A stretch of 64,000 nt of DNA from a bacterium. Lineage in GTDB: Bacteria > CLD3 > SB21. The notes beneath the pieces were generated by a model. The model searched no databases. It was not told the DNA's origin and saw only the letters and a program-made list of their open reading frames with translations. The position numbers and the translations under genes are program-made. Below are positions 1,532-60,832 of this stretch, in pieces (the first letter of the stretch is position 1; the number at the start of each line of letters is the position of its first letter). The stretch covers positions 26,908-90,907 of the forward strand of contig JAEUSK010000248.1 of the NCBI GenBank assembly GCA_016787925.1. Direction: 5' to 3'.

Positions 1532-1539
1532 GAGAATTT

Positions 1540-4991: not shown

Positions 4992-5006
4992 ACAGGTGAG
5001 GATTAA

Positions 5007-7640: not shown

Positions 7641-7663
7641 ATCATAACCAAAGGGGTGACAGA

Positions 7664-9415
7664 TTGAAAAATCCATGGTTACACAAACGAGCGATCCGCG
7701 TTCTAATGATGCTTATGCTCTCCTTTTCATTTTTCGGAGGGTGGTTCGCAGAGTCGCTGGTTGGCGACGATTATTACTATGAGGTCAAACGCGGGATCCG
7801 TCTGTTTGGCGATGTTTATAAAACAGTCACTGAGAAATACGTTGATGAAATTCCTCCAAAAGATTTTATGCGAACTGGAATTGACGGCCTACTGGCGACA
7901 TTGGATCCCTATACCGTTTACTATGAAGGGGATGAAAGCGGCGATCTGGACGCGCTCATGATGGGAAAATATGGCGGGGTGGGAATTTCGGTTGGAATTA
8001 AGGATGGATTTATAACCGTGATCACCACGATGGACGGTTCTCCGGCACAACGGGTAGGAATTTTGCCCGGGGACCGCATCGTCGGCGTGAATGGGCTGAC
8101 AGCGCATGATATTTCACTTCAGGAGATGTCTAATTTTGTTAAGGGTGAGCCGGGAACCAAAGTACGGCTGACGATACTGCGTGAGGGGCAGGATCATCGT
8201 ATGGATTTTGAATTGGTCAGGGAGATGATAGCTGTTGAAAATATATCGTATACGGGCATGATGAACGGCAGCATCGGATATATAAAGATCACAAAGTTTT
8301 CAAAAACGGCGAATTTTGATTTTGTCCGAGCTCTCAAAGATCTTAAAAACAGCGGCATGCAATCTTTAATCTTGGATCTGCGTGGAAACCCCGGCGGCCT
8401 GCTTGATGCGGCAATTGATATAACCAATCAATTCGTCAAGAAAGGTGAAACGATAACTTATACCAAAGGGCGGATTGCGGATGCGTCGCGCAGTTACAAG
8501 GCTATCAACGACCCAATGTTCCCGGATATGCCGCTAGTGGTATTGGTTGACGGCGGCAGTGCAAGCGCGTCGGAAATTGTAGGCGGCGCAGTACAGGATC
8601 TGGATCGCGGTGTAGTGATCGGGTCAACGACCTTTGGAAAAGGATTGGTTCAAACCGTTTATCCGCTTCAGGAAAGAGACGCCGTCATCAAAATTACGAC
8701 GGCAAAGTATTACACCCCAAGCGGGCGCAGTATTCAGAAGGAAGATTACTCGACACGCAAAACAAAGAAAATGGAACGCGGTGATGACGGCGAAAGAGAT
8801 ATTTTTGACACGTTCGGTTCCGGGGATGCAGTTACGGATTCGAATAAAATCCCGCGCGACAGTGGAAATGTGAAACAGGTTTTCAAGACCGCTAAAGGCC
8901 GAAGCGTATACGCGAATGGAGGGATTACGCCGGATATTGAAATTGCCACGCACGAATATACGGTATATTTTAGGGAAGTGTTAAGACGCGGTCTGATCTT
9001 TGATTACGCTACGAACTTCGTAGCCCATCACGCACGAATAGACTCCAATTTTGCCGTAGATGAAAACCTCATGATCGATTTTGAGAAATACATACAGACT
9101 AGACATTTCAATTATATTTCGGCAGCGGAAAAACAAATTGAAGAAATTGAACGGTTAGCAAAGAAGAATAATTACGGCGCAACGGCGACGGATAAAATTA
9201 ACGCCCTGCGTGGCGAACTGACAGCAGAGAAGCAAAAAGATTTTCAGAACAGCAAAACCTTTATTGCAATGACTTTGGAACAGGAAATCGTATCGCGGTA
9301 TTTTGGCAATAGGGCGCGTATTCTGACGAGCTTCAAATACGATAAGCCGTACTTGGCGGCGGTTGCATTATTAAAAAACCAGGAAAAATACCGCCAAGTG
9401 CTCGCAGGAAAGTAA
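7664..9415 (+). CDS. ctp: C-terminal processing (tail-specific) peptidase, S41 family, with PDZ domain
   Basis: The PDZ region reads GIGISVGIKDGFITVITTMDGSPAQRVGILPGDRIVGVNG. The S41 catalytic region reads LILDLRGNPGGLL...GSASASEIVGG...TFGKGLVQ. I chose the TTG start at 7664 because it is preceded by AAAGGGG and followed by a signal peptide; the ORF track's start at 7601 overlaps the upstream gene. Confidence 0.8.
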   Translation: MKNPWLHKRAIRVLMMLMLSFSFFGGWFAESLVGDDYYYEVKRGIRLFGDVYKTVTEKYVDEIPPKDFMRTGIDGLLATLDPYTVYYEGDESGDLDALMMGKYGGVGISVGIKDGFITVITTMDGSPAQRVGILPGDRIVGVNGLTAHDISLQEMSNFVKGEPGTKVRLTILREGQDHRMDFELVREMIAVENISYTGMMNGSIGYIKITKFSKTANFDFVRALKDLKNSGMQSLILDLRGNPGGLLDAAIDITNQFVKKGETITYTKGRIADASRSYKAINDPMFPDMPLVVLVDGGSASASEIVGGAVQDLDRGVVIGSTTFGKGLVQTVYPLQERDAVIKITTAKYYTPSGRSIQKEDYSTRKTKKMERGDDGERDIFDTFGSGDAVTDSNKIPRDSGNVKQVFKTAKGRSVYANGGITPDIEIATHEYTVYFREVLRRGLIFDYATNFVAHHARIDSNFAVDENLMIDFEKYIQTRHFNYISAAEKQIEEIERLAKKNNYGATATDKINALRGELTAEKQKDFQNSKTFIAMTLEQEIVSRYFGNRARILTSFKYDKPYLAAVALLKNQEKYRQVLAGK

Positions 9416-17540: not shown

Positions 17541-17816
17541 GGTTTATTAATTTTTGAGGAATTCGGCAAAAGAACACATGTAAATGCGCTGTGAAAATCT
17601 GACCAAAACCATTGACAAATCGTTGTTGGCAATGTACATTCCATTGTCTATTCGTAGTTCTTTCTTATCTTAGGGATATTCAACAGTTCTTTTTCAAAAA
17701 AAGCTGAAAATAAGGAAATATACAATTTCAGAAGAAGTACGGAATTTATTCGACACGCGCAATTTTGTTTAGACGCCATTGATAATGGCGGATATGTACA
17801 ATTGTGTTAATCAATA

Positions 17817-18349
17817 GTTATCTGAGATTTGTGGCGCGAACTTCTTCTTACTGCGGTGATATTATGATTTCAAGATTATGTTTCACTCTTTTCCTTATCT
17901 TGATTGTGGTTCCATCATGCGACAAAAACGATGACTCCATAAGTGGAATCACTGAAACTGACGCATTAGGGAACATTATTTCTACGGATGAAAGAGATTG
18001 GCAAATAACTTCATCCAATCATTCTAGCGGCAGCATGCCGTCTCTTCAGCCGGCATATCCAAATCCCACGGATGGACCACTTACATTTCGTTTTGGTTTT
18101 CCTGATACCATGAGAGTAACGATTCAAATTAAGAATTCAAAAAGAGTAATTCGTACGCTTCTTGACAATGAATTTCGACAAATTGGGTATCACACGATAC
18201 AGTGGGACTTGAAAGATGACGAGGGCAACATAGTTCCAAATGGTCTGTACCGTTGTGTCTTCAGTTTTTCGAGTGGAACGAAGACATCTAAAGGATATGG
18301 AGACATAGAAGTAGATGTATTGTAAGCTGCGCCACAAATCTCGGATAAC
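17817..18349. repeat. 21-bp inverted repeat pair (20/21 match) bracketing ORF 17864..18325
   Basis: gttatctgagatttgtggcgc (17817-17837) against gcgccacaaatctcggataac (18329-18349). Confidence 0.7.
17864..18325 (+). CDS. small secreted protein with FlgD-Ig-like (T9SS-cargo-type) C-terminal beta-sandwich
   Basis: The signal peptide is MISRLCFTLFLILIVVPSC. The C-terminus GYHTIQWDLKDDEGNIVPNGLYRCVFSF resembles the FlgD Ig-like domain pattern. Confidence 0.5.
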   Translation: MISRLCFTLFLILIVVPSCDKNDDSISGITETDALGNIISTDERDWQITSSNHSSGSMPSLQPAYPNPTDGPLTFRFGFPDTMRVTIQIKNSKRVIRTLLDNEFRQIGYHTIQWDLKDDEGNIVPNGLYRCVFSFSSGTKTSKGYGDIEVDVL

Positions 18350-20537: not shown

Positions 20538-21281
20538 CTACTCTTCGATCTCCATTGTTTCAATACTCGTCTTTAGTATCAAGACATTTTCCAGAGGCCG
20601 GTCGCGCGGCCCGCGCTGAACCTGCGCAATTTTATCTACGACATCCATACCGGATAATACTTCACCAAATACCGTATATTCCCCGTCCAGAAAAGGCGTG
20701 CCGCCGATAGTAGTGTAAACGGTTATTTGTTCTTCCGTAAATTGAAAATCGGGTTTGCCCTGCATTTTCATTTGTGATTCGATCCGGTTAAGTTGTTCGG
20801 CCGTAACGGGGCCATTTTGAACGATATAGAATTGACTGCCGCTGGATGCTTTTTTAGGATTAACCTGATCTCCCTGACGCGCCGCAGCAAGCGCGCCGCG
20901 TTTGTGGATGCGTTTGATCTCAGCCGGCGTAGTGTAACCCGGGCCGCCGATACCGTCGTTATTCGGATCGTTGTCTTTGGAATTGGGGTCGCCGCCCTGA
21001 ATCATGAAGTTGGGTATCACGCGGTGAAACGTCGTACTGTCGTAGAATCCTTCGCGGATCAGTTTTCTGAAATTAGCGGCATGTTTCGGCGCGTCTGCGT
21101 CGTAGAGCTGCAGAACGATCTTACCGAATTGCGTTTCCAATACGGCCACTTCACCCTGAACTTTTTTCTTTTCTTTTTTTCCCTGCGCGCATGCGCTGAG
21201 AGTGAACAGGCCGAGCAAGAGCATAGCGAGCATCGCTTGTGTGATCACCCGTGATCGCGGCGTCAAATTTGACTTGAACAA
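20538..21281 (-). CDS. peptidyl-prolyl cis-trans isomerase, cyclophilin type, lipoprotein
   Basis: Cyclophilin motifs FHRVIPNFMIQGGDP..GT.GG and VFGEV are present. The N-terminus has a signal peptide with LSACAQ. Confidence 0.85.
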   Translation of the reverse strand: MFKSNLTPRSRVITQAMLAMLLLGLFTLSACAQGKKEKKKVQGEVAVLETQFGKIVLQLYDADAPKHAANFRKLIREGFYDSTTFHRVIPNFMIQGGDPNSKDNDPNNDGIGGPGYTTPAEIKRIHKRGALAAARQGDQVNPKKASSGSQFYIVQNGPVTAEQLNRIESQMKMQGKPDFQFTEEQITVYTTIGGTPFLDGEYTVFGEVLSGMDVVDKIAQVQRGPRDRPLENVLILKTSIETMEIEE

Positions 21282-21429: not shown

Positions 21430-22434
21430 TTGTTTTGGTATAATGACTGTAGCCGAAAATTGTTAAACGTGAAAAATATACTCGTTTCAGGCCATAATTT
21501 CAAAAAAAAATATACGTTATTTTGTTGTCTGCTGTTTGTTATCCCCGTTTTCACTCTATCGGCTCAAGACAAAACCAGAATGTCATTTGAGGTTAATACC
21601 GTCATCGATCTTAGCGGCGAGGGTATTGGTCAGTTGGAAAACCCGCAATCGCTGTCGGTGAGTTTCATGGGCGATATTTACATCGCCGACACCGGACATA
21701 ATCGTATTGTCAAGCTGGATGCGAAAGGTAATTACGCTAATCACGTCGGCGGATTTGGCTGGAAGAATAACCAATTTGACGCTCCGGTGGACATTTTCGC
21801 CATCGACGGACTAAACATTTACGTTGCTGACCTGAATAATCAGCGCATCCAGCGTTACAGCAAGAAATTAGAATATGTTTCATCATTCGGCGGATCGAAG
21901 CTGACAGAACTCAGTATAGACGCTTCCAGGACATCCAATGAACCGCTTGGGTATCCTTCGGGTATTGCGGTTTCGTCTCAAGGCGACTTATTCTATTCAG
22001 ACAGCGAAAAGGATCAGATCGTAAAAATCAATCGATTCGGAAAAAAAGAAAGTGCATTTGGCGGTTTTTCTGAGGGTAGAGGAACATTAAGAAGTCCGGG
22101 AAAAATATTTGTCACGAGTAGGTTTGTTTACGTGATTGATGAAAATCGGGTTGTCGTTTTCGATTATTATGGTAATTATATCCGCGACGTCGGAATGAGT
22201 GTTTTGAAGAAACCCGCGGACATTACGATCGATAAGAAAGACCGAATTTACGTAGCGGATGCGGAATTGCGAACGGTTGTAGTTTACGATTCGGCGGGAA
22301 ACTTTCTCACGTCGCTTCTGTCCCACGCCTTTGACCGGCCTGTCTCCGTCGATTGTGTTCTTAACAAATTATATGTTCTCGACGGCAAAGCAGCTTCGAT
22401 CATTGTTTTCAATATTCTTGAAAGCGGCGATTAA
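21430..22434 (+). CDS. NHL-repeat beta-propeller protein, secreted
   Basis: The signal peptide is YTLFCCLLFVIPVFTLSAQ. Repeated NHL-like blades occur (IYIADTGHNRIVKLD; IYVADLNNQRIQRY; LFYSDSEKDQIVKI; VYVIDENRVVVFD; IYVADAELRTVVVYD). The start codon is uncertain; TTG or GTG candidates lie at 21430-21469. Confidence 0.65.
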   Translation: MFWYNDCSRKLLNVKNILVSGHNFKKKYTLFCCLLFVIPVFTLSAQDKTRMSFEVNTVIDLSGEGIGQLENPQSLSVSFMGDIYIADTGHNRIVKLDAKGNYANHVGGFGWKNNQFDAPVDIFAIDGLNIYVADLNNQRIQRYSKKLEYVSSFGGSKLTELSIDASRTSNEPLGYPSGIAVSSQGDLFYSDSEKDQIVKINRFGKKESAFGGFSEGRGTLRSPGKIFVTSRFVYVIDENRVVVFDYYGNYIRDVGMSVLKKPADITIDKKDRIYVADAELRTVVVYDSAGNFLTSLLSHAFDRPVSVDCVLNKLYVLDGKAASIIVFNILESGD

Positions 22435-25400
22435 ATGACGCGCTGTATTCATGCGGCCCTACTTATGATGTTATGTCATATTCATTCTGCATCTGCGCAA
22501 GACGAGTCCGATTCATTGTTTACAAAAGTGATCATAGATTCGACGATCAGCCGGCATTTCGAAAACCCGAACTCAATCAACCTATGGACGCGGACGTATT
22601 CCTTTTATGGAGCGGGTGTGGACACGGTGTACAAACTTCCGGACGAACTGATTGCCGTCGAGAGTGAAACGGTCAGCGCGGGCAAGATGCATCTATACCG
22701 AGGCTCCGACTATGTCATACACTACCGCCGAGGTGAAATTCAGTTTTCATCAATCCTTGCTGAAGACCTGGAAATCACGATTCAATACAACATCCTGCCT
22801 TTTAACTTGCGTACAGAATACGCGCACCGTCAAATACAAAATTGGGCCGTCGATGATTCCGTGAGGGTGAGTATCATGACGAGCGGTTTTCAATCTTCGA
22901 CTCCGGCGCAGGATAATCCGTTTGAGTCGTCCCAAATGGTGGGAACGGGGAGCATTACGCGAGGGTTTACTGTCGGCTCCAACCAGGACTTCACATTAAA
23001 TTCAGGTCTGAATGTACAGATATCCGGCAAAATAAGTGACGATGTGACCATTGAAGCATCACTGACCGATGAAAATATTCCGATTCAGCCGGAAGGCAAC
23101 ACGGAAAAACTGCAGGAGATCGATAAAATATTTGTCGAAGTTAATAAAGCCGATAATTACATCGCCACGTTTGGCGATTTTGAGGTGAGTCTGGCAGGAA
23201 CAGAGTTCGGTAATTATTCAAGAAAACTGCAGGGCGTAAGGGGCGCTGTGCGAACCGATGCAGTCACGGCTGACATTGCATTTGCGTCCACCAAAGGTAA
23301 ATTTTCGTCCAATACCCTGGTGATCATTGAAGGTAATCAGGGTCCTTATGCATTGACGGGTCTGAATGGGGAAAGCAATATTCTCGTAATTGCCGGAACG
23401 GAAAAAGTATGGTTAAACGGCGTTCAGCTTAGGCGCGGAGAAGACAATGACTTCGTTATTGACTACAATGCGGGGCAGATCACATTTACACGCAGGCGGT
23501 TGATCACGCCGGAATCGCGAGTTACTGTTGACTTTGAATACGCCGACGATGTTTTTAAGCGCACCACTTTCGCAAGCGGCATTAGAACCAATTGGTTCGA
23601 TCAAAAGATTTCGTTTGGCGGAGTTTTTATCAATGAATCGGACGATAAAAATAATCCCATAAATTTATTTCTTTCCGACCAAACTATCGATTCGTTGTCC
23701 GAAATTGACGATGACCAAATCAACTCGCAGGGCACGACGGTGTATGTTGACGGGGCAAGGCGGGTTGATTTCGGGCGTGGAGCGTATGTCCGGATATTTA
23801 ACCTTTCGGCCAACGACAGTATTTTCCTTTACGTCGGCGCTGACAGTTCAGGAGATTACAATGTGCGGTTCACGGACTTTGGCGCCGGCAACGGCGATTA
23901 TGTTCGCGGTAACATCTTAGGTGAATTCGTTTATGCCGGTAAGAATAGCGGAGCCTTCTTACCTTTGGTAGCATTACCTCTGCCCACACGCACGCAATTG
24001 GCAAGTTTCTTTCTTGAAACGCGGCCGATTAAGAACATGGTATTTGGCAGCGAGGTGGCCTTTTCGACCTTTGATATAAATTCATTTTCACCCGAGGATA
24101 TTAGCGGGAAAGCGTATCATCTGAAAGCTAATATTCAAAAACAAAAAATAGGATGGCATGGGAAGAAGCTGGGTGAATTTGACATGAACGCCCGTATTAG
24201 CCATATTGACAGCACATTTAAGGAAATCGACCGCATCAATGATCCGGAGTTCAATCGGTCATGGAATATTCACGGCACATACGGGGCTCCTTTAAGTTCA
24301 CTGGGCGCAGAAGAGAATCTAAAGGAAATTCATTCGGCGTACAGGCCGGTGGGAGAACTGCAATTTGCGGGATTTTACGGAGACCTTACAAGGGGCAACA
24401 AAGTATTCAGGTCTTCCCGATACGGCGGCGGTGTGCAGGCATCCTTTGATCAATTGCCGCAGGTGAATTATTCCATTGAAGAAATAAATTCAGAGAATCG
24501 AAATTCGTCCGATACATATCGCAGTGATGTGACACGTCAAAGTTTTCTCAGCAGTTATCAGTTGTGGAAAGTGAGACCGGGATTTGATTATGAAGACGAA
24601 ATCGTACGCAATCGTTTTGCCTCCGTCGACTCCGGTTTTGGTACTGCATATTTTACGTACCGTCCGCGTATTGATTTTAACAGGCTTAAGAAAATGCAGT
24701 TCGGTGTTATGCTGGAGACACGTCTTGATGAAAGCAGGAACTCACTGGTGGATTCGCTGGACGGACGGATTTCGACAGCAACGACTCAACGGTATTATTG
24801 GAATATGCTTGATTGGAATAATATCAATGCTACCGTCGAATACGTGCGGCGCCAAAAAGAATATCACGGCAAGTTTCGCACAGTAGAGAATCTTGATAAC
24901 ACATCGCATCTGATCAATTCGGCTTTGGATTACCACCGATGGAATCGCGCGATGACGAGCAGCATCAGTTATCAGGTGTCCGAACAAAGCTTGCAGGATC
25001 GTAAGCTTATTTTTGTTCCGGTGCAGGCGAATACCGGTAACTTCATTCAGGCCGCACGGGACAGTTTTATTCAGGTTCCGCAGGGACAAGGCGACTGGAT
25101 TCAAAGTACGGTACGCGTGGACGGATTTACACCTATCGTGGAAATAAAATTCGGTGTCCGTGTACGATTTGAGTTTTTGAGGTTTTACAAGAATACGGCG
25201 AATAAAGACACTGTCACAGAAGGAAAAGAAGGGGGTCTCACAAGTCTGTTGAAAAAAATGTCCACTGAGACAATTTTCAGAATCGAAGAAAATCAAAAAG
25301 AGCCGGACCTGTCTGTATATTTTATCGATCTGAGAAAGTACCAGAACAACGACAATACGCTGCGCGGCTCGCTCTTTTTCAGGCAGGACGTCTTATCGAC

Positions 25401-26013
25401 GGATAACGAGCGCCGTACGTCGATCAGATTGAGGTATGAACTTCAAAAGAACATATCTGGATTACTGACCGACGGAAATGAACGCAGGCGCAGAGAACTT
25501 GAGAACATACGTATTCGCACCCAGCCGTTTGAAAAAACGGCCTTTGAGAACGAATTAGAATACGAAACAAACCTGAAACGCTCGACCATTTCGGTTTCTG
25601 CATTTAACAGAGATTTTGATTTCTATAAAGTAAAATGGATTCCACAAATGTCGTATAAGCCAATTTACGAAATCGAGTGGATCAATAAAGGGATTCTGAT
25701 TTATTCGAACGACGCGTTCTCACGTCTGACCGCGCGCAGTTTTTCCTATGCGCCCGAACTGATCTATTCATTCAAAAATAAAGGCCGGGCGGCGCTGTCG
25801 TTCGACCTGTCGAGAGTATTTCTTTCGAAAGATATTTTTGTTCCGTTTGAAATTCTGAATGGGTTAAAAAAGGGATGGAACGCAAGCTGGCTGGTGACCA
25901 TGGACTACAGGATCAATAATCACGTATCGGCATCGTTGAATTATTCAGGGAGGAAAGAGCCAAAGCAAGATGTGATTCACCTGGGCAGCGCAGAGTTCAG
26001 AGCGTTTTTCTGA
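22435..26013 (+). CDS. very large (1192 aa) secreted protein, probable outer-membrane beta-barrel/assembly-type protein of unknown family
   Basis: The ATG sits immediately after the upstream TAA, which suggests coupling. The signal peptide is MTRCIHAALLMMLCHIHSASAQ. The sequence is rich in alternating beta-strand patterns and ends in an aromatic residue (...EFRAFF), as outer-membrane beta-barrels typically do. Confidence 0.6.
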   Translation: MTRCIHAALLMMLCHIHSASAQDESDSLFTKVIIDSTISRHFENPNSINLWTRTYSFYGAGVDTVYKLPDELIAVESETVSAGKMHLYRGSDYVIHYRRGEIQFSSILAEDLEITIQYNILPFNLRTEYAHRQIQNWAVDDSVRVSIMTSGFQSSTPAQDNPFESSQMVGTGSITRGFTVGSNQDFTLNSGLNVQISGKISDDVTIEASLTDENIPIQPEGNTEKLQEIDKIFVEVNKADNYIATFGDFEVSLAGTEFGNYSRKLQGVRGAVRTDAVTADIAFASTKGKFSSNTLVIIEGNQGPYALTGLNGESNILVIAGTEKVWLNGVQLRRGEDNDFVIDYNAGQITFTRRRLITPESRVTVDFEYADDVFKRTTFASGIRTNWFDQKISFGGVFINESDDKNNPINLFLSDQTIDSLSEIDDDQINSQGTTVYVDGARRVDFGRGAYVRIFNLSANDSIFLYVGADSSGDYNVRFTDFGAGNGDYVRGNILGEFVYAGKNSGAFLPLVALPLPTRTQLASFFLETRPIKNMVFGSEVAFSTFDINSFSPEDISGKAYHLKANIQKQKIGWHGKKLGEFDMNARISHIDSTFKEIDRINDPEFNRSWNIHGTYGAPLSSLGAEENLKEIHSAYRPVGELQFAGFYGDLTRGNKVFRSSRYGGGVQASFDQLPQVNYSIEEINSENRNSSDTYRSDVTRQSFLSSYQLWKVRPGFDYEDEIVRNRFASVDSGFGTAYFTYRPRIDFNRLKKMQFGVMLETRLDESRNSLVDSLDGRISTATTQRYYWNMLDWNNINATVEYVRRQKEYHGKFRTVENLDNTSHLINSALDYHRWNRAMTSSISYQVSEQSLQDRKLIFVPVQANTGNFIQAARDSFIQVPQGQGDWIQSTVRVDGFTPIVEIKFGVRVRFEFLRFYKNTANKDTVTEGKEGGLTSLLKKMSTETIFRIEENQKEPDLSVYFIDLRKYQNNDNTLRGSLFFRQDVLSTDNERRTSIRLRYELQKNISGLLTDGNERRRRELENIRIRTQPFEKTAFENELEYETNLKRSTISVSAFNRDFDFYKVKWIPQMSYKPIYEIEWINKGILIYSNDAFSRLTARSFSYAPELIYSFKNKGRAALSFDLSRVFLSKDIFVPFEILNGLKKGWNASWLVTMDYRINNHVSASLNYSGRKEPKQDVIHLGSAEFRAFF

Positions 26014-32336: not shown

Positions 32337-34067
32337 TCAGCCTTTCCATAAGATCTCATATACTGTCACCGGTTCTGCTATGCCTTTCAATACGACCTGT
32401 TCAATGGCGGAAGCGATTTCTTTGTTCGGCAGAAGATCATAAGTTGACTGACTGATGATGATTTGTCCCTTCTTTGCAACACTGCAGAGACGATTGGCAA
32501 TATTTACTGTTTCTCCAATGACCGTATATTCCAGCCGCTTATTTGAACCGATATTTCCTACAATCACATCGCCCGTATTAATGCCGATACCGATGTGAAT
32601 CGGATCTTTTCCTTCGATTTTACGCTGGAAATTAAATTTTTCGACGGCGCGTTGCATTTGCACGGCGGCATTTATCGCACGCATAAAAAAATCGTCATAG
32701 TGAACCGGGGCGCCAAAAAAAGCCAGAATTGCGTCGCCGATGAATTTGTCTAACGTACCTCCGTAACGGTCAATAATATCGATACTTTCGTCGAAATGCG
32801 AATTAAGTAAATTGATCAGCGCCTGCGGGTCCATGCCGCGCGACATAGGCGTAAAACCGCGAATGTCAGTAAACAAAACGCTCAACATGGCTTTTTCGCC
32901 TTTCAAAATGCCATCGATGGACTGTTCCGCCAATACTTTTTTTGCGACATCCGGGGACAGATATTTCCCGAAGAGTCCTTCGACGCGTTTCTTTTGTTTC
33001 AGCCCTTTGGTCATCTCATTAAACGACGAGGCCAAAAGCCCTATCTCGTCTTTGCTTTTTACTTTTACTTCGAAATCTAAGTTACCTGCTGCAATTTCCC
33101 GCGTCGCGCTTGCAAGTAAGGCTACAGGTCGAGCTACGCCATGTGAAATAATGATGCCGATAAATAATGCAATGGCAGCAACGCCCAATCCGATAATGAG
33201 CATCAGTTTCTGCGAATCCACGAGCGGTTCGAGCGCTTTGTCGAGGGAATTGAAAAAGACGTAAGTTGCTATAACTTTCTTGTCTTCGCCTTCGGTTCCT
33301 GGCGATGCAAATACCGGAGAAGCTACACCCAAATATTTTTCTCCGCCGACCGTAAATTCAAATGCGGAACTGGATGTTTTCTTGATCATCGCATGATCCA
33401 GTTCGGATTTATGCTGCTGGAATTGGTCAAACAATTCTTGCCTCTTATCATGCATGTTGGTAGAGACAATCTTGTTGCTGACCAGGAATGCGATATGGCT
33501 GTTGGTTACCTTTGAAATGACTGCGGCTACCGTGTCCGTGACTTCGTAGCCCAATGCGATTGCGCCGAGAACCTGATCGTTGGCAATGGTGGGCGATGCG
33601 GCCACGCGGATCAATTTACCGTTTTCCTCCCAAAAACCGCCGTTATCGATGCCGCTGAGGGCGCCGCTAATCTCAGGTCTCTGCGATAGATTAATGTTCG
33701 ATTTCATTTCAGTTCCGACGTAGGCCAAAACCTCTCCGGATGGACTTAGCGCAACGAAGATGTCCGAATTAAAACCATTTATCCTGTTGGTTTCATCAAG
33801 ACCCTGCTGTACCGTGGCTTTATCGCCGGTACTGAGCTGAGCGGCAAATTTGGGGTTGTCGGACACACTGCGAGATTGCAGTATAAGCTGACTAAAATAG
33901 CTTTCGTTAAATTCCTCGTACGTGACATTGCTGCGTGAAAGCCGGTCGACAATGTCGCTTTTAATGCGTTTTGCCAACTGCACGGATACGAAGAAATAAG
34001 ATGTTCCGGCTATAATCAATATAACCAGAACAAGCAGGATAAGCTTGTCTCTGAATTTTAGAGTCAT
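32337..34067 (-). CDS. class III adenylate/guanylate cyclase with N-terminal TM, periplasmic sensor domain and HAMP
   Basis: The HAMP region is followed by VLFTDIRGFTPMS...IGDAILAFFGAP...GINTGDVIVGNIGS, which are CYC-domain motifs. Confidence 0.8.
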   Translation of the reverse strand: MTLKFRDKLILLVLVILIIAGTSYFFVSVQLAKRIKSDIVDRLSRSNVTYEEFNESYFSQLILQSRSVSDNPKFAAQLSTGDKATVQQGLDETNRINGFNSDIFVALSPSGEVLAYVGTEMKSNINLSQRPEISGALSGIDNGGFWEENGKLIRVAASPTIANDQVLGAIALGYEVTDTVAAVISKVTNSHIAFLVSNKIVSTNMHDKRQELFDQFQQHKSELDHAMIKKTSSSAFEFTVGGEKYLGVASPVFASPGTEGEDKKVIATYVFFNSLDKALEPLVDSQKLMLIIGLGVAAIALFIGIIISHGVARPVALLASATREIAAGNLDFEVKVKSKDEIGLLASSFNEMTKGLKQKKRVEGLFGKYLSPDVAKKVLAEQSIDGILKGEKAMLSVLFTDIRGFTPMSRGMDPQALINLLNSHFDESIDIIDRYGGTLDKFIGDAILAFFGAPVHYDDFFMRAINAAVQMQRAVEKFNFQRKIEGKDPIHIGIGINTGDVIVGNIGSNKRLEYTVIGETVNIANRLCSVAKKGQIIISQSTYDLLPNKEIASAIEQVVLKGIAEPVTVYEILWKG

Positions 34068-34366: not shown

Positions 34367-37180
34367 ATGAAGCTGTTTGATATCTGGCAATTCAGGGTCG
34401 TTGTCGCTGTCTTTGTTATTGTCGCCATAGCGGTTCCGGCTTTGGTTTTCCTGTTGCCCTTTCAATTGCCTGAACCTGCATTATTAAACATCCAATCGCT
34501 GACGGTAAGATTAGTCATATGGCTGATTTGCGTGGCCGCCGGTGTTTTTTTCCTCATAATTAACCTGCAGTCACTCGTCAAGAGACACGAAGTCACAAAA
34601 AAATCACAGCAATTCGACGTCCTTAACGCCGTGCATGAATCCCTTATACGGGAAATCGAACTGGAGAAGGTATTGGAAAAGATTATTGAATTGGCCATCA
34701 CGGCAATACCGGCGGCCGAAAAAGGCTGTGTACTTATTCTGAATGAAGAGAAACGTTATTTAGAAGTAAGGGCTCAAAAGGGATATGATGAACTTCCTGC
34801 AAATTTTCATATCAAACTGGGAGAAGGATATGGGGGAGAAGCTGTATCGCAAGGAAGGAATTTCCTTATTCACGATCTCGATAGGGAGGATGCGCGATTA
34901 CGAACGATCAAGTCGTTTGGTGTAAATAGGCCGCGCATCAAATCCGCAGTGACCACTGTTTTAAAGATGAGAGATAAATGTGTTGGAACGATATCTCTGG
35001 AAAACGGCACAGTCACTCATGCCTTCACAGAACATGATTTGAAACTTCTGGTGTCTCTGGCGTCGCCGGCTTCATTGGCCATCGAGAACGCGATGTTGTA
35101 TGAAAGCGTCCGCAAACATGCCCGTGAACTTGAAATGCTTAACAGGGTTAATTTTGATCTGATCCAATCTCTTGACCTTCAGACGGTTCTGCAAAAGGTT
35201 ATTGATTCAGCTATTACGGCCATTCCAAAAGCAAAGATGGGCACCGTCCTTCTGTTGGATGAAGAAAACAAAAATCTTGTTGTTAAAGCGTTTCGCGGAT
35301 ACGATCCGGAAGTTCTCAAAGGATTCGTTTTGCCTGTGGGTAAAGGCTTTTCAGGCGTAGCAGTATCCCAAAGAAAAAGTTTTATTATTTCTGATTTGAG
35401 TTTGCCCTTATACAAGAAATTTTGGCTTAAGGACGAACAATCTGCGCCGATGAAAATAAGGTCGGCGATGACGGCGGTATTGATGGTCAAAGATAAATTG
35501 ATCGGTACGATTTCTCTTGAGAATCCGCATGAAGCGGATGTCTTTAAAGAGAACGATCTTAAAATTCTTACATCATTTGCTTCGCAGGCCGCGATGGCCA
35601 TTGAAAACGCTAAATTCTATGAGACCCTGGAAAGGGAAGTCGAACAGCGAACGTCCAAACTTCGTGAAATGAACATGAAAATTGTCGAGGCCGATCGTCT
35701 AAAATCGGAATTTCTTGCCAATATGAGTCACGAACTCCGTACTCCGCTGAATGCAATCATCGGCTTTTCAGAATTATTACTTGATGAAGCACAAGAGGAA
35801 GAGATCAAAAACAAACGCGAATGTCTTATTGACATATACCAAAGCGGAAGACATTTGCTTCAGCTGATCAATGACATTCTTGATCTCTCAAAAATCGAAG
35901 CGGGCAAAATGGAACTCCATCTTGAAAATTTTATTATTACGGATCTTATGTATTCAGTTCAAAGAACGGTTGCGCCTTTACTCGACAAGAAAGCGCAAAA
36001 ATTGAAAATCGAGATACCGAAGAACTTCCCTGTGGTATTTGCCGATCCCAAGAAAATAAGGCAAGTGATGTTGAACTTGGTAAGTAATGCCATTAAGTTT
36101 TCGCCCAATCAAACTGAGATTTGCGTGACGTCATCCTATCATGAGGAAAATAAAGGCAATGCGTTTGAAATTACCGTGGCCGATCACGGCCGCGGCATTC
36201 GTGAAGAAGACCAGAAGATTATTTTTGACGAATTTCGTCAGGTCGATGGAAGCACAACGCGAGAAGATCAGGGCACAGGCCTCGGCCTCGCACTTTGCCG
36301 CAGACTCGTCGAAATGCACGGCGGCAGGATATGGGTCGACAGCATTTACGGACAAGGAAGCACTTTCAAAGTTCGCATTCCGCAGAGTCAATCAAAAATG
36401 GAAGAAGTCATTGGAGATCTTAGTCAGGAACGTGCGTATTCCAGCGATTTCATTCTGGTCGTTGAAGACGACCTTCAATCAGCAAATTTGATGAAACGGT
36501 TCTTAGAACTCGAAGGGTATCGCGTGGTGAATGTTCGGAACGGCAATGAAGTCCTGGCCGAAGCAAAAAAGATAAGGCCGCTGGCCATCACACTAGACAT
36601 TATGCTTCCCGGAAAAGACGGTTGGGACGTTTTACAGGAATTGAAGTCCGACAGTGTTACACAGTCTATTCCCGTATTTATCGTATCTGTAATGGACAAG
36701 AAAGACAAAGCGTATGGTCTGCACGCCGATGATTATTTTGTCAAGCCGCTGAATCGCATTCAGATTCTAGACCGAATCGGAGCATTGAAGAAACGTAACG
36801 GAGCTAAAAATCAGATCGACCGCATTTTGGTTGTGGACGATGATGATAACGCACTTTTCTTGACAACCTCTTTCCTGCAGAAAGAGGGGTTTGAAGTCAT
36901 GAATGCCCGGGACGGACGAAAGGCGCTTGATATGATCCGGATGGACAGGCCGGATCTGGTCATTCTCGATCTCCTGATGCCGAATATGAGCGGCTTTGAA
37001 ATGATGGAGATCATGCGTCATGAAAACGAGCTTAAAAACATCCCTGTGATAGTGCTGACAGCGAAGGAATTAACTCCGGAAGACCGTGCGCATATGAGCG
37101 GTCAGGTTAAGAAATTTATGCAGAAATCATCTTACAGTATTCACGACCTTCTGTATGAAATTAAGAGAGTGGTGGGTTAA
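34367..37180 (+). CDS. hybrid sensor histidine kinase: 2 TM, GAF, GAF, HisKA, HATPase_c, REC, REC
   Basis: The H-box is FLANMSHELRTPLNAI, the G-box is DHGRGI...GTGLGLALC, and two receivers carry the phospho-acceptor Asp (ITLDIMLPGKDG and LVILDLLMPNMSG). Confidence 0.85.
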   Translation: MKLFDIWQFRVVVAVFVIVAIAVPALVFLLPFQLPEPALLNIQSLTVRLVIWLICVAAGVFFLIINLQSLVKRHEVTKKSQQFDVLNAVHESLIREIELEKVLEKIIELAITAIPAAEKGCVLILNEEKRYLEVRAQKGYDELPANFHIKLGEGYGGEAVSQGRNFLIHDLDREDARLRTIKSFGVNRPRIKSAVTTVLKMRDKCVGTISLENGTVTHAFTEHDLKLLVSLASPASLAIENAMLYESVRKHARELEMLNRVNFDLIQSLDLQTVLQKVIDSAITAIPKAKMGTVLLLDEENKNLVVKAFRGYDPEVLKGFVLPVGKGFSGVAVSQRKSFIISDLSLPLYKKFWLKDEQSAPMKIRSAMTAVLMVKDKLIGTISLENPHEADVFKENDLKILTSFASQAAMAIENAKFYETLEREVEQRTSKLREMNMKIVEADRLKSEFLANMSHELRTPLNAIIGFSELLLDEAQEEEIKNKRECLIDIYQSGRHLLQLINDILDLSKIEAGKMELHLENFIITDLMYSVQRTVAPLLDKKAQKLKIEIPKNFPVVFADPKKIRQVMLNLVSNAIKFSPNQTEICVTSSYHEENKGNAFEITVADHGRGIREEDQKIIFDEFRQVDGSTTREDQGTGLGLALCRRLVEMHGGRIWVDSIYGQGSTFKVRIPQSQSKMEEVIGDLSQERAYSSDFILVVEDDLQSANLMKRFLELEGYRVVNVRNGNEVLAEAKKIRPLAITLDIMLPGKDGWDVLQELKSDSVTQSIPVFIVSVMDKKDKAYGLHADDYFVKPLNRIQILDRIGALKKRNGAKNQIDRILVVDDDDNALFLTTSFLQKEGFEVMNARDGRKALDMIRMDRPDLVILDLLMPNMSGFEMMEIMRHENELKNIPVIVLTAKELTPEDRAHMSGQVKKFMQKSSYSIHDLLYEIKRVVG

Positions 37181-37181
37181 T

Positions 37182-40100
37182 ATGAAACTGACCATGCAAA
37201 AAGGGCTGATCCGCTTGATCTTACCGGTTATTGTAATCCTCGGATTGGAATCGGCATGCACGGCCCAGGAACTTGAAATCGACTTTGAGAGAATAACGAT
37301 TGAACAGGGACTATCACAAAGCAGTATCAACTGTATAATTCAGGACAGTCGCGGTTTCATGTGGTTCGGCACGCAGGACGGATTGAACCGATATGACGGA
37401 TATGATTTCATGGTGTATAAACGCAGTTCTGTAGACACATTTACTTTATCAAGCAACTGGATTACTTCGTTGTTTGAAGATGTGTCCGGTTCGATATGGA
37501 TAGGCACTCAGGGCGGCGGCCTAAATAAATTTGACCGGTTTACAGAAAAATTTGTTTCCTATATGCACGATCCAAACGACTTGTCCAGTCTAATAAGTAA
37601 TGACGTGCGTTCGGTGCACGAAGATAAAAGCGGAACATTTTGGATCGGCACCGGGAGCGGCGTCTGTACTTTTGACCGCAGAACAGGTAAATTTCAACGT
37701 CTGACTAACGGCAATGGCATTGAGAAAGCATACGTTTCCGCGATATTTGAGGACCGGATCGGACAAATATGGTTTGGCACACAGGGGTCCGGTTTGTATA
37801 AACTGACTAAACAAAAGAATCGCACAACTGTTGTGCATTATACGCATCTGCCGGATTTTGCAAATAGCCTGAGTAACGATTTTGTTAACGCAATATATCA
37901 GGACAACAACAAGACCATTTGGGTCGGTACAGCTGGCGGGCTCAATAAACTACTTTCCGAAGAGACCGGCAGTTTTATTTCATTTAAGAAGAACGACAAA
38001 AACCCTGCAAGCCTTTCTTTTGATCGTGTTCAGACCATTTTTGAAGATCGTCTAGGGATGCTCTGGATAGGCACGGACGGCGGCGGACTCAATTGTTTTG
38101 ATCCGCGTGATCCCACGCGGACTAAGTTCGTTAGTTACACGCAAGACCCGATTAACCTCCGGAGTCTCAGCGAAAATCGTGTCTTCTCTTTGCTTGAAGA
38201 CAAGTCAGGAACCCTGTGGATCGGGACGGGCGGAGGGTTGAGTAAGTTCGACCGAAAGCCCAAGAAATTTGCACATTTTAAAACAGAGCCATACAACCCC
38301 AACAGCCTTAACGTGAGCGAAGTGTGGTGTTTTTACGAAGACAGTGAGGGCATTCTTTGGATAGGCACTAATGGCGGCGGATTAAATCGTTTCGACAGGA
38401 GGACCAATACATTTTCATTTTATCGAAACGAAATAAAGAATGGCCTGAGTCTGAGTGAAGATCGCGTATGGTCAATTCTGCAGGACGATGGCGGAGCGCT
38501 TTGGATAGGCACCAATGGCGGCGGACTGAATAAAATGAATATTGGTGCGGAATCATTTACGCGATACCGTAATGATGCGGCGAATCCAAAAAGCCTCAGC
38601 GATAACCGCGTCAAAGCCTTACTGAAGAGCCGTGACGGTAATATTTGGATCGGCACCCGCGCAGGCGGGCTTAATAAGCTCGATCCGGTATCGGAAACGT
38701 TTGAATCCTATGTGAACGATCCCCTTGATCCCAATAGTCTCAGCAGTAATAATATCTACTCGCTCTATGAAGACCGCGATGACGTATTATGGATAGGAAC
38801 GTTTGGAGGCGGCCTTAATAAATTTGACCGACGAACAGGAAAATTTACGGTATACAGAAACAATCCTAAAGACCCAAGTTCGATCAGTTCAAATGGCATC
38901 CTAAGTATGTGTGAAGATACGAACGGAAATTTTTGGATTGGAACTCAGAACGGCGGGCTGAACAGATTGGACCGGGAGAAAGGTACATTTACAAATTATT
39001 CCCGTGAAGCCGGATTACCCAACGAAGTCGTGTACGCCGTACTCGAGGATAATCAGGGTTATCTTTGGATCAGTACTAATAAAGGGTTATCCCGGATCCG
39101 ATATGACCAGGCCACGGGCAATATGGAAATTCGCAATTACGATCAGCATGATGGTTTGCAGAGCGACGAATTTAACGGCGGCTCTTATTATAAGAATCAC
39201 AAAGGCGAATTGTTCTTTGGAGGAGTAAACGGATTTAATGTATTTCTTCCCGAGGAAGTGAAAGATAATTCGCATGTTTCTCCCGTCGTTCTGACCGCCT
39301 TCAAAAAGTTTGATCGTATTCAGAAACTTGAAACATCCGTTTCTGAGATCAAAGAAATTAAGTTGTCGTACAGGGAAAACGTTTTTTCATTTGAATTTGC
39401 TGCGCTTGATTTTACCAGGCCGGAGAAAAATCAATACGCCTATAAAATGGACGGCTTCGACATTGACTGGATTTACTGCGGTTCGCGGCGTTATGCGAGC
39501 TATACCAATCTGGACGGCGGGACGTACACTTTTAGAGTCAAAGGCACGAATAACGACGGGCTATGGAATGAAGCCGGAGCTGCCGTCACGATTATTATCA
39601 CGCCGGCATTTTGGAATACATGGTGGTTCAGGCTATTGGTCGTATTGTTGGTCGGTTGGGCCGCAGTAGGGTATTACCGTTCGAGGGTAACTGCCGTTCA
39701 AAAGCAAAATGAGATTCTCGAAACAAAAGTAGAGGAACGTACGAAGTCACTTCGCGAAATGAACTCTAAAATCATAGAAACGGACAGGCTGAAGTCAGAA
39801 TTTCTCGCGAATATGAGTCACGAGCTGCGTACACCGCTGAATGCGATCATCGGTTTTTCTGAATTGCTTCAGGATGAAATGAAAGAAAGCGCGACGCCGG
39901 ATCAAATGCAGAGTTTACAGGACATTCACCACAGCGGGAAACACCTTTTACAGCTGATTAATGATATTCTGGACCTGTCAAAGATCGAGGCGGGTAAAAT
40001 GGAACTAAATCAGGAGCATTTTGAGGTGCGGCAATTGCTGGAATTGATCAGACGTACTGTCACGCCGTTATTGGACAAGAAGAGCCAGTTACTGGAAATA

Positions 40101-41270: not shown

Positions 41271-41281
41271 AAGGGAAAATC

Positions 41282-41659
41282 ATGGCATCAAAAAAAATTC
41301 TGCTGGTGGAAGACAATGAAGTCAATATGAGACTGGTCAAATTGACACTGAAGAATCAGGACTACGACTTCATTGAGGCGAGTAACGGTGAGGACGCTAT
41401 CGATCTGGCAGAAGAACAAAGACCCCATCTGATCATCCTGGACATCCAGCTTCCAAAAATGGATGGCTACGAAGTCGCTCGAACGCTCAAAAACACGGAA
41501 TCACTTAAGCACATTCCGATCATCGGTCTCACCGCACATGCCATGAAGGGGGACGAAGAACGTGTGCTCAACGCAGGATGCGACGCGTACGTAAGCAAAC
41601 CGCTTGATACCAACCAATTCAGAGGATTGGTAAAATCATTTTTATCTAAAAAAATATGA
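41282..41659 (+). CDS. stand-alone response regulator receiver (CheY-like)
   Basis: The receiver motifs are ILLVEDNEVN...LIILDIQLPKMDG...YVSKP. The gene starts 11 bp after the second kinase gene. Confidence 0.8.
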   Translation: MASKKILLVEDNEVNMRLVKLTLKNQDYDFIEASNGEDAIDLAEEQRPHLIILDIQLPKMDGYEVARTLKNTESLKHIPIIGLTAHAMKGDEERVLNAGCDAYVSKPLDTNQFRGLVKSFLSKKI

Positions 41660-48272: not shown

Positions 48273-48278
48273 GATAAA

Positions 48279-49064: not shown

Positions 49065-49096
49065 TATTAAACGTGCCATACATCAGGATTCGCACT

Positions 49097-50320: not shown

Positions 50321-50348
50321 CTGATTGAGATTTCGGAGGAATAAAAAT

Positions 50349-60806: not shown

Positions 60807-60832
60807 TAAAATTGAATTCTAAAGGAAATCTC

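Follow-up and report, generated by a model that had tools for sequence, protein, structure and literature searches.

Very few single-chain outer-membrane barrels exceed 30 strands; SprA, which forms a 36-strand barrel, and Deinococcus SlpA, with 30 strands, are the examples met here. Each of them has revealed a new principle of transport or of the envelope. Proteins with genes of their own, namely Plug, PorV, and a PPIase, act together with SprA and close or occupy its pore (PMC10994853). We analyzed a 64,000-nucleotide stretch of a bacterial contig (JAEUSK010000248.1; hereafter the window), in which a gene for a putative giant outer-membrane barrel directly follows a gene for an NHL β-propeller protein. 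A first-pass annotation had interpreted the two as an uncharacterised two-gene envelope module. The observation underlying this interpretation was confirmed, the module was supported as a co-encoded pair, and the interpretation as a whole was supported in part.

Two abutting genes and their conservation

The NHL gene (21469..22434, + strand) encodes 321 aa from a GTG at 21469 to a TAA at 22432-22434. At its full extent the ORF spans 21430..22434 (+), with a TTG at 21430 as an alternative start; the GTG is the more likely start, because a normal signal peptide then results (MKNILVSGHNFKKKYTLFCCLLFVIPVFTLSA/QD). As had been annotated, the TAA is followed directly by the ATG, at 22435, of the 1192-aa ORF of the barrel gene (22435..26013, +), which belongs to an unnamed family. 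The junction (TAA-ATG, 22432..22437, +) reads GGC GAT TAA ATG ACG, with a gap of 0 nt and both genes in the same frame. Judged from this sequence, co-transcription and translational coupling of the two genes are likely. A scan for sigma-70 promoters and terminators gave counts no higher than the shuffle level.

Outside the Ignavibacteria-type groups, all 24 loci that are informative carry an NHL orthologue just upstream of the barrel gene (26 loci fall outside these groups, but two are the same contig, which starts at the barrel gene). The barrels of these NHL-linked loci are ≈30-34% identical. In those window-clade loci where an NHL ORF was called (L001, L005, L006, and L008), the two genes have a gap of 0 nt; the gap is 3 nt in KSB1, and -4 to 24 nt in 16 of the 21 loci with an NHL ORF. 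Because this short gap recurs across loci, the abutment of the NHL and barrel genes is not chance. By contrast, an NHL gene is next to the barrel gene in none of 58 Ignavibacteria-type loci, and thus the propeller is not universally linked. The adjacency, which the first-pass annotation had proposed to check, is kept among relatives of the window genome and also in highly divergent genomes, but it is lineage-specific. Neither a known, unrelated family for the large protein nor non-adjacency in relatives, both of which we looked for, overturned the proposed module.

The 58 Ignavibacteria-type loci, together with the commonness of NHL proteins in the window genome, would fit an alternative in which the NHL and barrel proteins are functionally unrelated and share an operon only in some lineages. 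This alternative is very improbable, given that a gap of 0-24 nt is kept over at least five deep sub-lineages, in which the barrels are ≈30% identical and the flanking genes wholly different. The one line of evidence for contact between the two proteins is this synteny, which suggests that they probably form a physical complex. A second NHL protein in the window (58637..60121) shares 33% identity over 137 aa with the first, corresponding to generic NHL repeats only, and has no link to the barrel module. Hence, the envelope-stress or assembly theme that had been proposed for the two NHL proteins is unsupported.

In 17 loci from KSB1/Calditrichota, an Omp85/POTRA gene lies directly downstream of the barrel gene. 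In the KSB1 loci, its product is TamA-sized (588 aa) and matches PF01103 (1.1e-20) and PF07244 (3.9e-20). This neighbor is absent from the window locus and from the window clade, and likewise is not adjacent in Ignavibacteria. The KSB1 cluster adjoins rpmH-rnpA-yidD-yidC-mnmE, and each locus retrieved has one copy of the barrel gene and housekeeping neighbors. No substrate, motor, or other secretion genes are linked in any locus examined. We considered two-partner secretion (TpsA/TpsB) and rejected it; the Omp85 protein is of the BamA/TamA type, with a ShlB match of only 1.5e-4, and the barrel protein, as a candidate TpsA, is a predicted barrel with a β-signal and not a β-helix.

Divergent from the NHL gene of the window is a gene for a cyclophilin-type peptidyl-prolyl isomerase (20538..21281, - strand; Pfam Pro_isomerase, E=2.9e-47). 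Loci L001 and L005-L009, all of the window clade, have the cyclophilin gene at this position, whereas it is absent from KSB1 loci; its membership in the module is uncertain. A link to the T9SS PPI subunit was not supported, since the T9SS chain was not among the top 60 PDB matches, and we therefore treat this adjacency as clade-specific context.

The two products and the barrel family

The NHL protein has a signal-peptide-like N-terminus (aa 1-32; 21469..21564, +) ending in FTLSA/QD, and no L-x-x-C lipobox is present at this cleavage site in the translation. It matches the Pfam NHL family (PF01436, E=5.5e-21, with 3 scored repeats) and, in the PDB, can be aligned over its full length with NHL propellers of six blades (best E 9e-24); its sequence matches there include Pizza designs, TRIM71, Brat, and PknD. 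The product of the first gene thus has the six blades of an NHL propeller.

The barrel protein likewise starts with a signal-peptide-like segment (aa 1-21; 22435..22497, +), which ends in HSASA/QDE and reads MTRCIHAALLMMLCHIHSASA/QDE in full. Signal peptides had been annotated on both products, and such N-termini are present in both translations as judged by eye. The last strand of the barrel protein (25975..26010, +; DSSP strand 1181-1191) carries the C-terminal AEFRAFF, which resembles the β-signal of outer-membrane proteins. Across 59 family members, residues R1173, A1190, and F1192 do not vary, and the C-terminal RAFF is invariant. A second conserved segment is a near-invariant loop, SLTDxNxPIQPEGNTxxLQEIDK (aa 208-231; 23056..23127, +), in which columns A208, D212, P216-G221, T223, and D230 are invariant in the 59 sequences. 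D212, P216, P219, G221, and T223 remain invariant in 41 more diverse sequences. The AF2 model has low pLDDT at aa 212-230, with values below 50 in the loop. This loop is a probable contact site for a partner or a ligand.

The barrel protein is identical to the NCBI entry "hypothetical protein JNM05_13235" (bacterium). It has more than 2544 homologues, and none of the 120 listed has a precomputed Pfam domain. At E≤1e-3, the family comprises 4993 representative clusters, of which 2421 remain at E≤1e-30; its members (≈1100-1240 aa) are annotated as hypothetical proteins. It is distributed over KSB1/Zhuqueibacterota, Calditrichota, Ignavibacteriota, and the clade of the window; the carriers include a MAG clade labelled "Bacteroidota". 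Classical Bacteroidia genomes account for none of the best 80 genome loci, and a tblastn search against PLSDB plasmids found nothing. Melioribacter, a genus that carries the barrel family, has Por-CTD enzymes (PMC3534657). The window itself encodes a probable T9SS-type CTD cargo.

Pfam and NCBIfam searches, of the kind that had been suggested with the annotation, gave NHL for the first gene and only a sub-threshold SprA match for the second. The barrel protein has no Pfam domain at E<0.1, and the profiles of the family and of its small domain (see below) found no SprA and nothing meaningful among PDB sequences. The Pfam and NCBIfam searches agree with the statement of the first-pass annotation that no motif assigns the protein to BamA, LptD, or TamB. 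In our best reading, the family would be a new, separate lineage of giant barrels distinct from BamA, LptD, TamB, and SprA.

Predicted fold and proposed function of the barrel

A transmembrane β-barrel is predicted for aa 167-1192 (22933..26010, +), with ≈41 DSSP strands and insertions at aa 296-362 and 404-518. The AF2 model contains ≈40 long amphipathic strands (DSSP on the model) with dyad hydrophobicity. For the C-terminal two-thirds, predicted from the window fragment and full-length database homologues, pLDDT was 88 and pTM 0.76. The structural neighbors found by Foldseek are all outer-membrane barrels, and the top query-normalised TM-scores, although low, belong to the widest of them, SprA, SlpA, and MtrB. 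These matches, the AF2 model, and the invariant RAFF agree with the annotated β-rich outer-membrane barrel with an aromatic C-terminus. SprA structures are the four best matches of the full model (TM 0.24); without the N-terminal third, SprA is no longer the top match, and Deinococcus SlpA scores highest with the C-terminal model (query-normalised TM 0.36-0.37).

Covariation between strand columns was scored as MI-APC, with controls; mfDCA was dropped as too noisy at Neff 269. Among 317 sequences, adjacent predicted strands scored 0.060, compared with 0.026 for non-adjacent strands. The last and first strands scored 0.055, a value matched by 0 of 23 null windows; this closure signal is weak and non-specific, as strands 4, 8, and 9 also give a score with the last strand. 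The covariation is consistent with, and weakly supports, one closed barrel. Based on the model, the protein probably forms a single closed barrel of ≈40 strands.

The explanation that we prefer, and hold tentatively as falling somewhat short of probable, is that the pair forms a propeller-gated, very wide outer-membrane channel. The two genes would be expressed together; the propeller would be exported by Sec as a soluble, six-bladed NHL protein, and the barrel protein, also exported by Sec, would form a single, very wide barrel in the outer membrane, of the size class of SprA and SlpA. The propeller would then sit at or inside the periplasmic opening of this barrel, where it would serve as a plug, a gate, or an adaptor for substrates, and macromolecules would cross the outer membrane through the wide bore of the barrel. 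In KSB1/Calditrichota, the co-encoded TamA-sized Omp85 protein would probably insert or partner the barrel. A conduit or export function, for which the local SprA similarity (see below), the probable CTD cargo of the window, and the Por-CTD enzymes of Melioribacter speak, is itself possible but doubtful. In a more specific form that we consider unlikely, the family would be a previously unrecognised, minimal wide-bore pore for export in FCB bacteria other than Bacteroidia, either a cap-less SprA ancestor or an independent channel, composed of a ≈40-strand barrel, an NHL gate, and a TamA-like insertase.

The likeness of the C-terminal model to SlpA raises another alternative, that the barrel serves as a giant SlpA- or porin-like pore for general diffusion or uptake, and that the propeller binds or processes in the periplasm what enters. 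Many NHL propellers bind ligands or are enzymes, and the NHL protein has weak matches to SGL/gluconolactonase-like and Vgb lyase families in Pfam and NCBIfam; the wide distribution of the family and its housekeeping neighbors would also fit. We regard such a pore as quite unlikely. The barrel protein lacks an SLH domain, a coiled coil, and a TonB-plug domain, and the genes linked to the pair include none for transport or catabolism. Moreover, an unplugged 40-strand pore would be lethal, and therefore a gate would be needed in any case.

The family is of interest for several reasons. It has thousands of members in several poorly studied phyla and appears to pack ≈40 strands into 1150-1200 residues. 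A loop that is apparently disordered is nevertheless invariant, and many lineages tie the barrel to a periplasmic propeller and an Omp85 protein. If the barrel is a gated conduit for macromolecules, the assembly, closure, and opening of very wide outer-membrane pores could be studied on a much smaller protein that is easier to work with, and it could show how SprA evolved. If the minimal export pore is the true reading, no larger compact single-chain barrel would be known. If it is instead a biogenesis factor, the picture of envelope assembly in the carrier phyla changes. Cultivable carriers exist in Melioribacter and Ignavibacterium, and so the function of the barrel is testable.

Comparison with known systems

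Like SprA (compared as PDB 6H3I, 6H3J, and 8GL8), the barrel protein is a predicted single-chain, very wide outer-membrane barrel of the FCB superphylum, and both contain two copies of a small β-domain (DY.vDY..G.v.i) followed by similar strands. Copy 1 (aa ≈50-120; 22582..22794, +; pLDDT 80-88) carries the motif SE.V....L.R..DY.IDY..G.I.F and aligns by hhalign with SprA/Sov residues ≈659-718. Copy 2 and the next two strands (aa 318-403; 23386..23643, +) match positions 604-688 of the 2319 in the NCBIfam SprA model TIGR04189, with E=1.2e-12 and 46 bits, whereas the curated cutoff is 200 bits and a SprA protein would cover most of the model. TIGR04189 is matched by 26 of 41 family members, none better than E=1.2e-12, and is the only recurrent curated family match in these 41 besides a phage-tail domain. 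We compared the family profile with two SprA profiles (23 and 33 sequences), built with Sov/SprA sequences from a PeerJ supplement, which cover Bacteroidales and Cyclobacteriaceae only. Alignments spanned 58-60 columns (E=1.3e-3, 5.9e-4, and 1.2e-4; probability 18-55%), and the best extended one, at a probability of 48%, paired barrel aa 68-400 with Sov 425-754.

Profile alignment detects no homology along the barrel itself. N-terminal barrel segments did not match the SprA profiles in default or relaxed hhalign modes. Homology of the whole barrel was rejected, as hhalign found the small domain alone and "global" alignments at low mact were junk; an alignment by eye of the TDxNxPxxPE loop with the SprA N-terminus was also rejected, having no statistical support. 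SprA_N (PF14349), present in 240 of 240 listed canonical SprA proteins, has no match in the barrel protein at E<0.1. At 1192 aa compared with 2300-2550 aa (2159-2547 aa among the SprA proteins listed), the protein is half as long as SprA and has no room for the >150-kDa extracellular cap. It ends in RAFF, whereas SprA ends in NLSQ or NLTQ; its barrel starts with strands placed after the first and before the second small domain, whereas in SprA the first barrel strands precede both; and its partner is an NHL propeller. Sequence comparison thus indicates that the family shares one real β-domain of ≈60-85 residues with SprA, yet is not SprA. The first-pass annotation had found no T9SS family by motif, which overlooked this small link, but because the link is limited to one small domain, it was correct in declining the name SprA for a protein of about half the size.

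These similarities bear on an alternative in which the barrel is a T9SS translocon, namely a cap-less "mini-SprA" orthologue that exports CTD cargo in FCB bacteria outside Bacteroidia, with the NHL protein as Plug or adaptor. The TIGR04189 matches, the four best Foldseek matches of the full model, and the co-linearity of both small domains and following strands with Sov are consistent with this alternative, as are T9SS-type cargo in the carrier phyla and the lack of classical Bacteroidia among the best 80 genome loci. The low bit score, the missing PF14349, the ≈60 columns of profile homology, the length, and the C-terminus make it rather improbable. Furthermore, no PorV, PorU, GldKLMN, Plug, PPI, or SprE gene is linked in any locus examined, and a Sov query found nothing in the retrieved loci or the window. 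Homologues of SprA, PorV, and Plug detectable by BLAST have been stated, unsourced, to occur in Ignavibacterium and Melioribacter (PMC11705866); if these are canonical SprA, the barrel family coexists with SprA, which would argue against this alternative.

Deinococcus radiodurans SlpA (PDB 8AE1, 8AGD, and 7ZGX), at ≈1100 aa, is similar in total length and gives the best query-normalised TM with the C-terminal model, but it comes from another phylum, has an SLH domain and a coiled-coil stalk that the barrel protein lacks, and shows 8-10% identity in the alignments, which is no sequence similarity. Likeness to TonB-dependent receptors is limited to the barrel wall (237-298 aligned residues), and neither PF07715 nor PF00593 is matched.

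The Omp85 gene downstream in KSB1/Calditrichota and the housekeeping contexts of the family led us to consider that the barrel, propeller, and TamA-like Omp85 protein form an outer-membrane biogenesis machine, LptD/LptE-like or associated with BAM or TAM, that inserts lipids, LPS, or complex outer-membrane proteins. The single copy per locus and a propeller partner reminiscent of BamB agree with such a machine, which we nevertheless consider an unlikely reading. OstA_N/LptD, POTRA/Omp85, and TamB/AsmA domains are absent from the barrel protein in Pfam and NCBIfam searches (E<0.1), and neither the window clade nor Ignavibacteria shows the Omp85 link. LptD has an OstA/LptA-like jellyroll, a C-terminal barrel domain of 26 strands, and a small lipoprotein as partner; the barrel protein has ≈40 predicted strands, a soluble six-bladed propeller as partner, and only generic fold similarity to LptD (query-normalised TM 0.13-0.24, below SprA and SlpA). 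TamB/AsmA proteins have a membrane anchor, a β-taco, and DUF490, whereas the barrel protein has a cleavable-type signal peptide and closed-barrel fold neighbors. BamB is an eight-bladed, PQQ-like lipoprotein with a lipobox Cys; the 321-aa NHL protein is six-bladed and of NHL type, without a lipobox, and unlike BamB or LptE. The POTRA repeats and 16-strand domain of Omp85 proteins are found in the separate downstream gene of KSB1 and not in the barrel protein. The pairing with BamB/BamA and LptE/LptD drawn in the first-pass annotation thus still stands as an analogy. As in the BamA-BamB and TamA-TamB systems, a propeller and an outer-membrane barrel are co-encoded, and in KSB1/Calditrichota the pair is followed by a genuine, TamA-sized Omp85 gene.

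Two abutting genes for exported proteins

The TAA stop codon of the NHL gene (22432-22434) is followed immediately and in the same frame by the ATG of a 1192-aa ORF (22435..26013, +; junction GGC GAT TAA ATG ACG), as the first-pass annotation had noted and as the DNA and the ORF list agree. The longest ORF of the NHL gene (21430..22434, +) encodes 334 aa from a TTG, but GTG 21469 is the more plausible start (321 aa), because initiation there gives the putative signal peptide MKNILVSGHNFKKKYTLFCCLLFVIPVFTLSA followed by QD. The large protein starts with MTRCIHAALLMMLCHIHSASA followed by QDE and ends in AEFRAFF, and RAFF, a beta-signal-like C-terminus, is invariant in the family alignment. Judged by eye, each N-terminus resembles a Sec signal peptide with an Ala-x-Ala-type site, consistent with the signal peptides assigned earlier to both products, and no lipobox was found at either N-terminus in the translations.

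HMM searches proposed in the first-pass annotation were performed on both proteins. The product of the NHL gene matches Pfam PF01436 (NHL; E=5.5e-21) and aligns with six-bladed NHL propellers of the PDB (E down to 9e-24), which indicates a genuine NHL propeller. By contrast, a noise-level lectin match is the only Pfam result at E<0.1 for the large protein, whose sequence is that of NCBI "hypothetical protein JNM05_13235 [bacterium]". Its >2544 word-indexed homologues (about 1100-1200 aa) are all unnamed, save one labelled "DUF2460 domain-containing", and carry no Pfam domains in the NCBI listing. Scanning all 1.84 billion representatives by HMM gave 4993 clusters with E<=1e-3, of which 2421 have E<=1e-30, and at least 465 barrel-encoding loci were found with one genome per species. 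Carrier labels include KSB1, Zhuqueibacterota, Calditrichaeota/Calditrichaceae, and Ignavibacteriota, the last with Melioribacter sp. Ez-97 and with MAGs that bear the names Ignavibacterium album and Melioribacter roseus. The window's own clade consists of "Bacteroidota bacterium" MAGs with 48-57% identity, and classical Bacteroidia isolates are missing from the best 80 of the at least 465 loci.

Predicted fold of the large protein

The structure of the large protein alone was predicted with AlphaFold2 from a 59-sequence alignment (pLDDT 74.9, pTM 0.58). The model contains a small beta-domain (aa 50-120), a disordered linker (aa 128-166), and about 41 long strands in successive hairpins (aa 167-1191), interrupted by a second copy of the small domain (aa 296-362) and a further insertion (aa 404-518). 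The C-terminal 688 residues modelled alone gave a confident fold of about 30 strands (pLDDT 88.0, pTM 0.76). Foldseek comparison of these models with the PDB returned exclusively outer-membrane barrels, which bears out the earlier description of a strand-rich protein of outer-membrane type. The top four matches of the full model are SprA, the T9SS outer-membrane translocon (8gl8_A, E=1.4e-11; 8gl6_A; 6h3i_A; 6h3j_A), with low query-normalised TM-scores of 0.23-0.24, followed by TonB-dependent receptors, MtrB, SlpA, and LptD. For the C-terminal fragment, Cir and LptD have the best E-values, and query-normalised TM-scores are highest for the widest barrels (SlpA, 0.36-0.37; SprA, 0.29-0.36; MtrB, 0.33) compared to LptD (0.20-0.26) and TonB-dependent receptors (0.20-0.28). 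Hence the sheet, as predicted, curves only gently, as expected for a very wide barrel.

When averaged over the family, hydropathy shows a period-2 alternation in most of the predicted strands, including the N-terminal ones. In MI-APC covariation analysis of 317 sequences (Neff 269), adjacent predicted strands had a mean score of 0.060 compared to 0.026 for non-adjacent strands (95th percentile 0.051), and the best partners of most strands are their sequence neighbours. The last and first strands score 0.055, a value reached by 0 of 23 length-matched null windows; this favours one closed barrel only weakly, because strands 4, 8, and 9 score with the last strand as well. Based on these predictions, the large protein is very likely an outer-membrane barrel, and likely a single one of about 40 strands.

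Several N-terminal motifs are invariant in the family alignment: SGSITRG, LTDxNxPIQPEGNTxxLQEIDK, EGxQGPY, and AGTE.VW.[DN]G...RGE.ND[YF]VIDY..GQITFT. The loop SLTDxNxPIQPEGNTxxLQEIDK (aa 208-231; 23056..23127) is almost invariant in a family otherwise about 30% identical, and is modelled at pLDDT <50; it resembles a motif with a binding or other functional role that would fold only with a partner.

Conservation and surroundings of the gene pair

The pair lies among housekeeping genes: miaA, serine dehydratase, RibD_C, and a divergent cyclophilin (20538..21281, -) upstream, and convergent PGI, ABC ATPase, ccm genes, and sensor kinases downstream. No RNA genes were found in the window. A 70%-identical relative has the same order, cyclophilin(-)/NHL/barrel/PGI(-). 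In KSB1 genomes with barrels only 32% identical, the order is a 170-aa unknown/NHL (307 aa)/barrel/Omp85+POTRA (about 590 aa)/SpoU, adjoining rpmH-rnpA-yidD-yidC-mnmE. Across 84 loci searched by tblastn, an NHL gene is directly upstream of the barrel gene in 24 and an Omp85 gene directly downstream in 17. When loci were grouped by barrel clustering, NHL is upstream in 5/5 of the window clade (the window and four loci with full-length barrel ORFs; no Omp85 downstream), in 14/17 of the main KSB1/Calditrichota group by ORF clustering (15 by tblastn; the other two are a single contig that begins at the barrel gene; Omp85 in 13/17), and in 3/3 singleton lineages (Omp85 in 1/3). The gap between NHL and barrel genes is 0 nt in the window clade, 3 nt in KSB1, and -4 to 24 nt in 16 of 21 ORF-defined cases.

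The persistence of this tight pair across such divergence, with every other neighbour exchanged, argues strongly that propeller and barrel are functional, probably physical, partners. The uncharacterised two-gene envelope module proposed earlier is thus a real, conserved pair, and a trio in some lineages. Conservation of adjacency, also raised in the first-pass annotation, extends to distant KSB1 but fails in the three Ignavibacteria-type groups (37, 18, and 2 clustered; 58 loci in all), which have neither an NHL nor an Omp85 gene next to the barrel gene and place it beside housekeeping genes (Nudix, PfkB-type kinase, MtnA, RecO, HtrA, and AroC). As these loci demonstrate, the barrel gene need not adjoin the NHL gene; that the two genes have no functional link at all is nevertheless highly improbable given the pairing elsewhere.

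Other features accompany these loci. KSB1-type loci conserve the 170-aa protein upstream of NHL, which has no Pfam match (L002, 6473..6985), a 588-aa, TamA-sized Omp85/POTRA protein directly after the barrel and before SpoU (L003, 11060..12826), and, two genes beyond, an M1 peptidase with a CHU_C/Por_Secre_tail domain; L010, L018, L019, L032, and L034 are similar. The cyclophilin PPIase (20538..21281, -) has a signal peptide and occupies the same place in every locus of the window clade (L001, L005-L009), though not in KSB1. A PPIase is one subunit of the SprA translocon (PMC10994853); the T9SS chain is not among the top 60 PDB matches of the cyclophilin.

A second NHL protein (494 aa; 58637..60121, -) lies beside an ECF sigma factor (60231..60806) and a zf-HC2 anti-sigma factor (60767..61132). 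The envelope-stress or assembly theme suggested for the NHL proteins is unsupported, because this protein and the propeller have only generic NHL repeats in common (33% identity over 137 aa). Elsewhere, 47460..51089 encodes two adjacent di-haem CCP/MauG-like cytochromes c, then OMP_b-brl-like (415 aa) and CarboxypepD_reg proteins, and may be a periplasm/outer-membrane redox cluster. Tandem, very large hybrid sensor kinases (34367..41659; 937 aa with GAF, and 1371 aa with Reg_prop propellers and Y_Y_Y) are followed by a stand-alone response regulator and preceded by an adenylate cyclase with Cache/HAMP (32337..34067, -). An exported envelope/peptidase run (50..9415) includes PEGA-domain and TPR + Peptidase_MA proteins, an 877-aa M23 peptidase (BNR, Golvesin_C), and an S41/PDZ tail-specific protease.

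Relation to SprA/Sov and possible function

The one notable NCBIfam match of the large protein is sub-threshold, to TIGR04189 "T9SS outer membrane translocon Sov/SprA" (E=1.2e-12; 46 bits, where the cutoff is 200), and is confined to aa 318-403 (model positions 604-688). Among 41 diverse family members, 26 match TIGR04189 and 15 match the phage distal-tail family (TIGR02217/DUF2460) through the same small domain. This domain may be a module that recurs widely, not a sign of descent from SprA. Canonical SprA proteins, gathered using Sov/SprA sequences from the supplement of PMC7323717, are 2159-2547 aa and all contain PF14349. Pairwise BLAST and HMM comparisons with P. gingivalis Sov, Cyclobacterium SprA, and F. 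johnsoniae SprA matched a short domain only. Profile-profile comparison aligned only 58-60 columns (aa 60-119 with Sov ~659-724; E=1.3e-3, probability 18%, against 23 Bacteroidales SprA sequences; E=1.2e-4, probability 55%, against 33 from two orders). A slightly different profile aligned aa 68-400 co-linearly with SprA 425-754 (probability 48%), mapping both small-domain copies and two strands after copy 2 onto SprA; aa 160-300, the first barrel segment, did not align with the SprA N-terminus. Together, these comparisons imply that the element in common is the small beta-domain (aa 60-117 and 318-370; 22612..22785 and 23386..23544).

We rejected SprA-family membership, since each defining trait that could be tested sets the protein apart: score (46 vs 200 bits), lack of PF14349 at E<0.1, length, and profile-profile homology along the barrel. 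The earlier decision not to call the protein SprA was therefore sound, and the statement that no T9SS component family could be assigned by motif needs amending only for the match at aa 318-403. Probable T9SS-type CTD cargo is encoded in the window, namely a 584-aa MXAN_6640-type HExxH metalloprotease (53235..54989, -; C-terminal FlgD_ig/TIGR04183 Por_Secre_tail-like, 21.7 bits, cutoff 23) and a 173-aa protein (17804..18325, +; FlgD_ig/PorU-CTD-like tail), so the organism likely has some CTD-dependent export route; such cargo also occurs in other genomes carrying the family. Despite the SprA matches, it is quite unlikely that the barrel is a true mini-SprA, that is, the T9SS translocon itself. 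One paper (PMC11705866) states, without accessions, that BLAST detects homologues of SprA, PorV, and Plug in Ignavibacterium and Melioribacter, and another (PMC12611786), again without accessions, takes every FCB phylum but Chlorobiota to have SprA. If these SprA proteins are canonical, the barrel family exists alongside SprA and has another role.

We tentatively favour, as possible but short of probable, a propeller-gated conduit. The barrel would conduct large substrates, the propeller would bind its periplasmic face or lumen as plug, gate, or adaptor, and the TamA-sized Omp85 might be its insertase or partner. A pore as wide as the predicted barrel must be sealed, so a dedicated protein partner is plausible; a giant diffusion or uptake pore seems doubtful to us. 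LptE fills LptD, and that pair is one model for the proposed role of the propeller. An outer-membrane biogenesis machine, considered in view of the Omp85 neighbour, which is absent from the window clade and Ignavibacteria-type loci, is unlikely.

SprA, which is closed or occupied by Plug and PorV (PMC10994853; PMC8754138), provides the other model for the propeller. Like SprA, the large protein appears to be a giant FCB outer-membrane barrel, and the small beta-domain occurs twice in each, but the barrels have no homology detectable by profile-profile comparison. We conclude that the sequences define a new family of giant outer-membrane barrels that resembles SprA in kind and in one module, not in membership.
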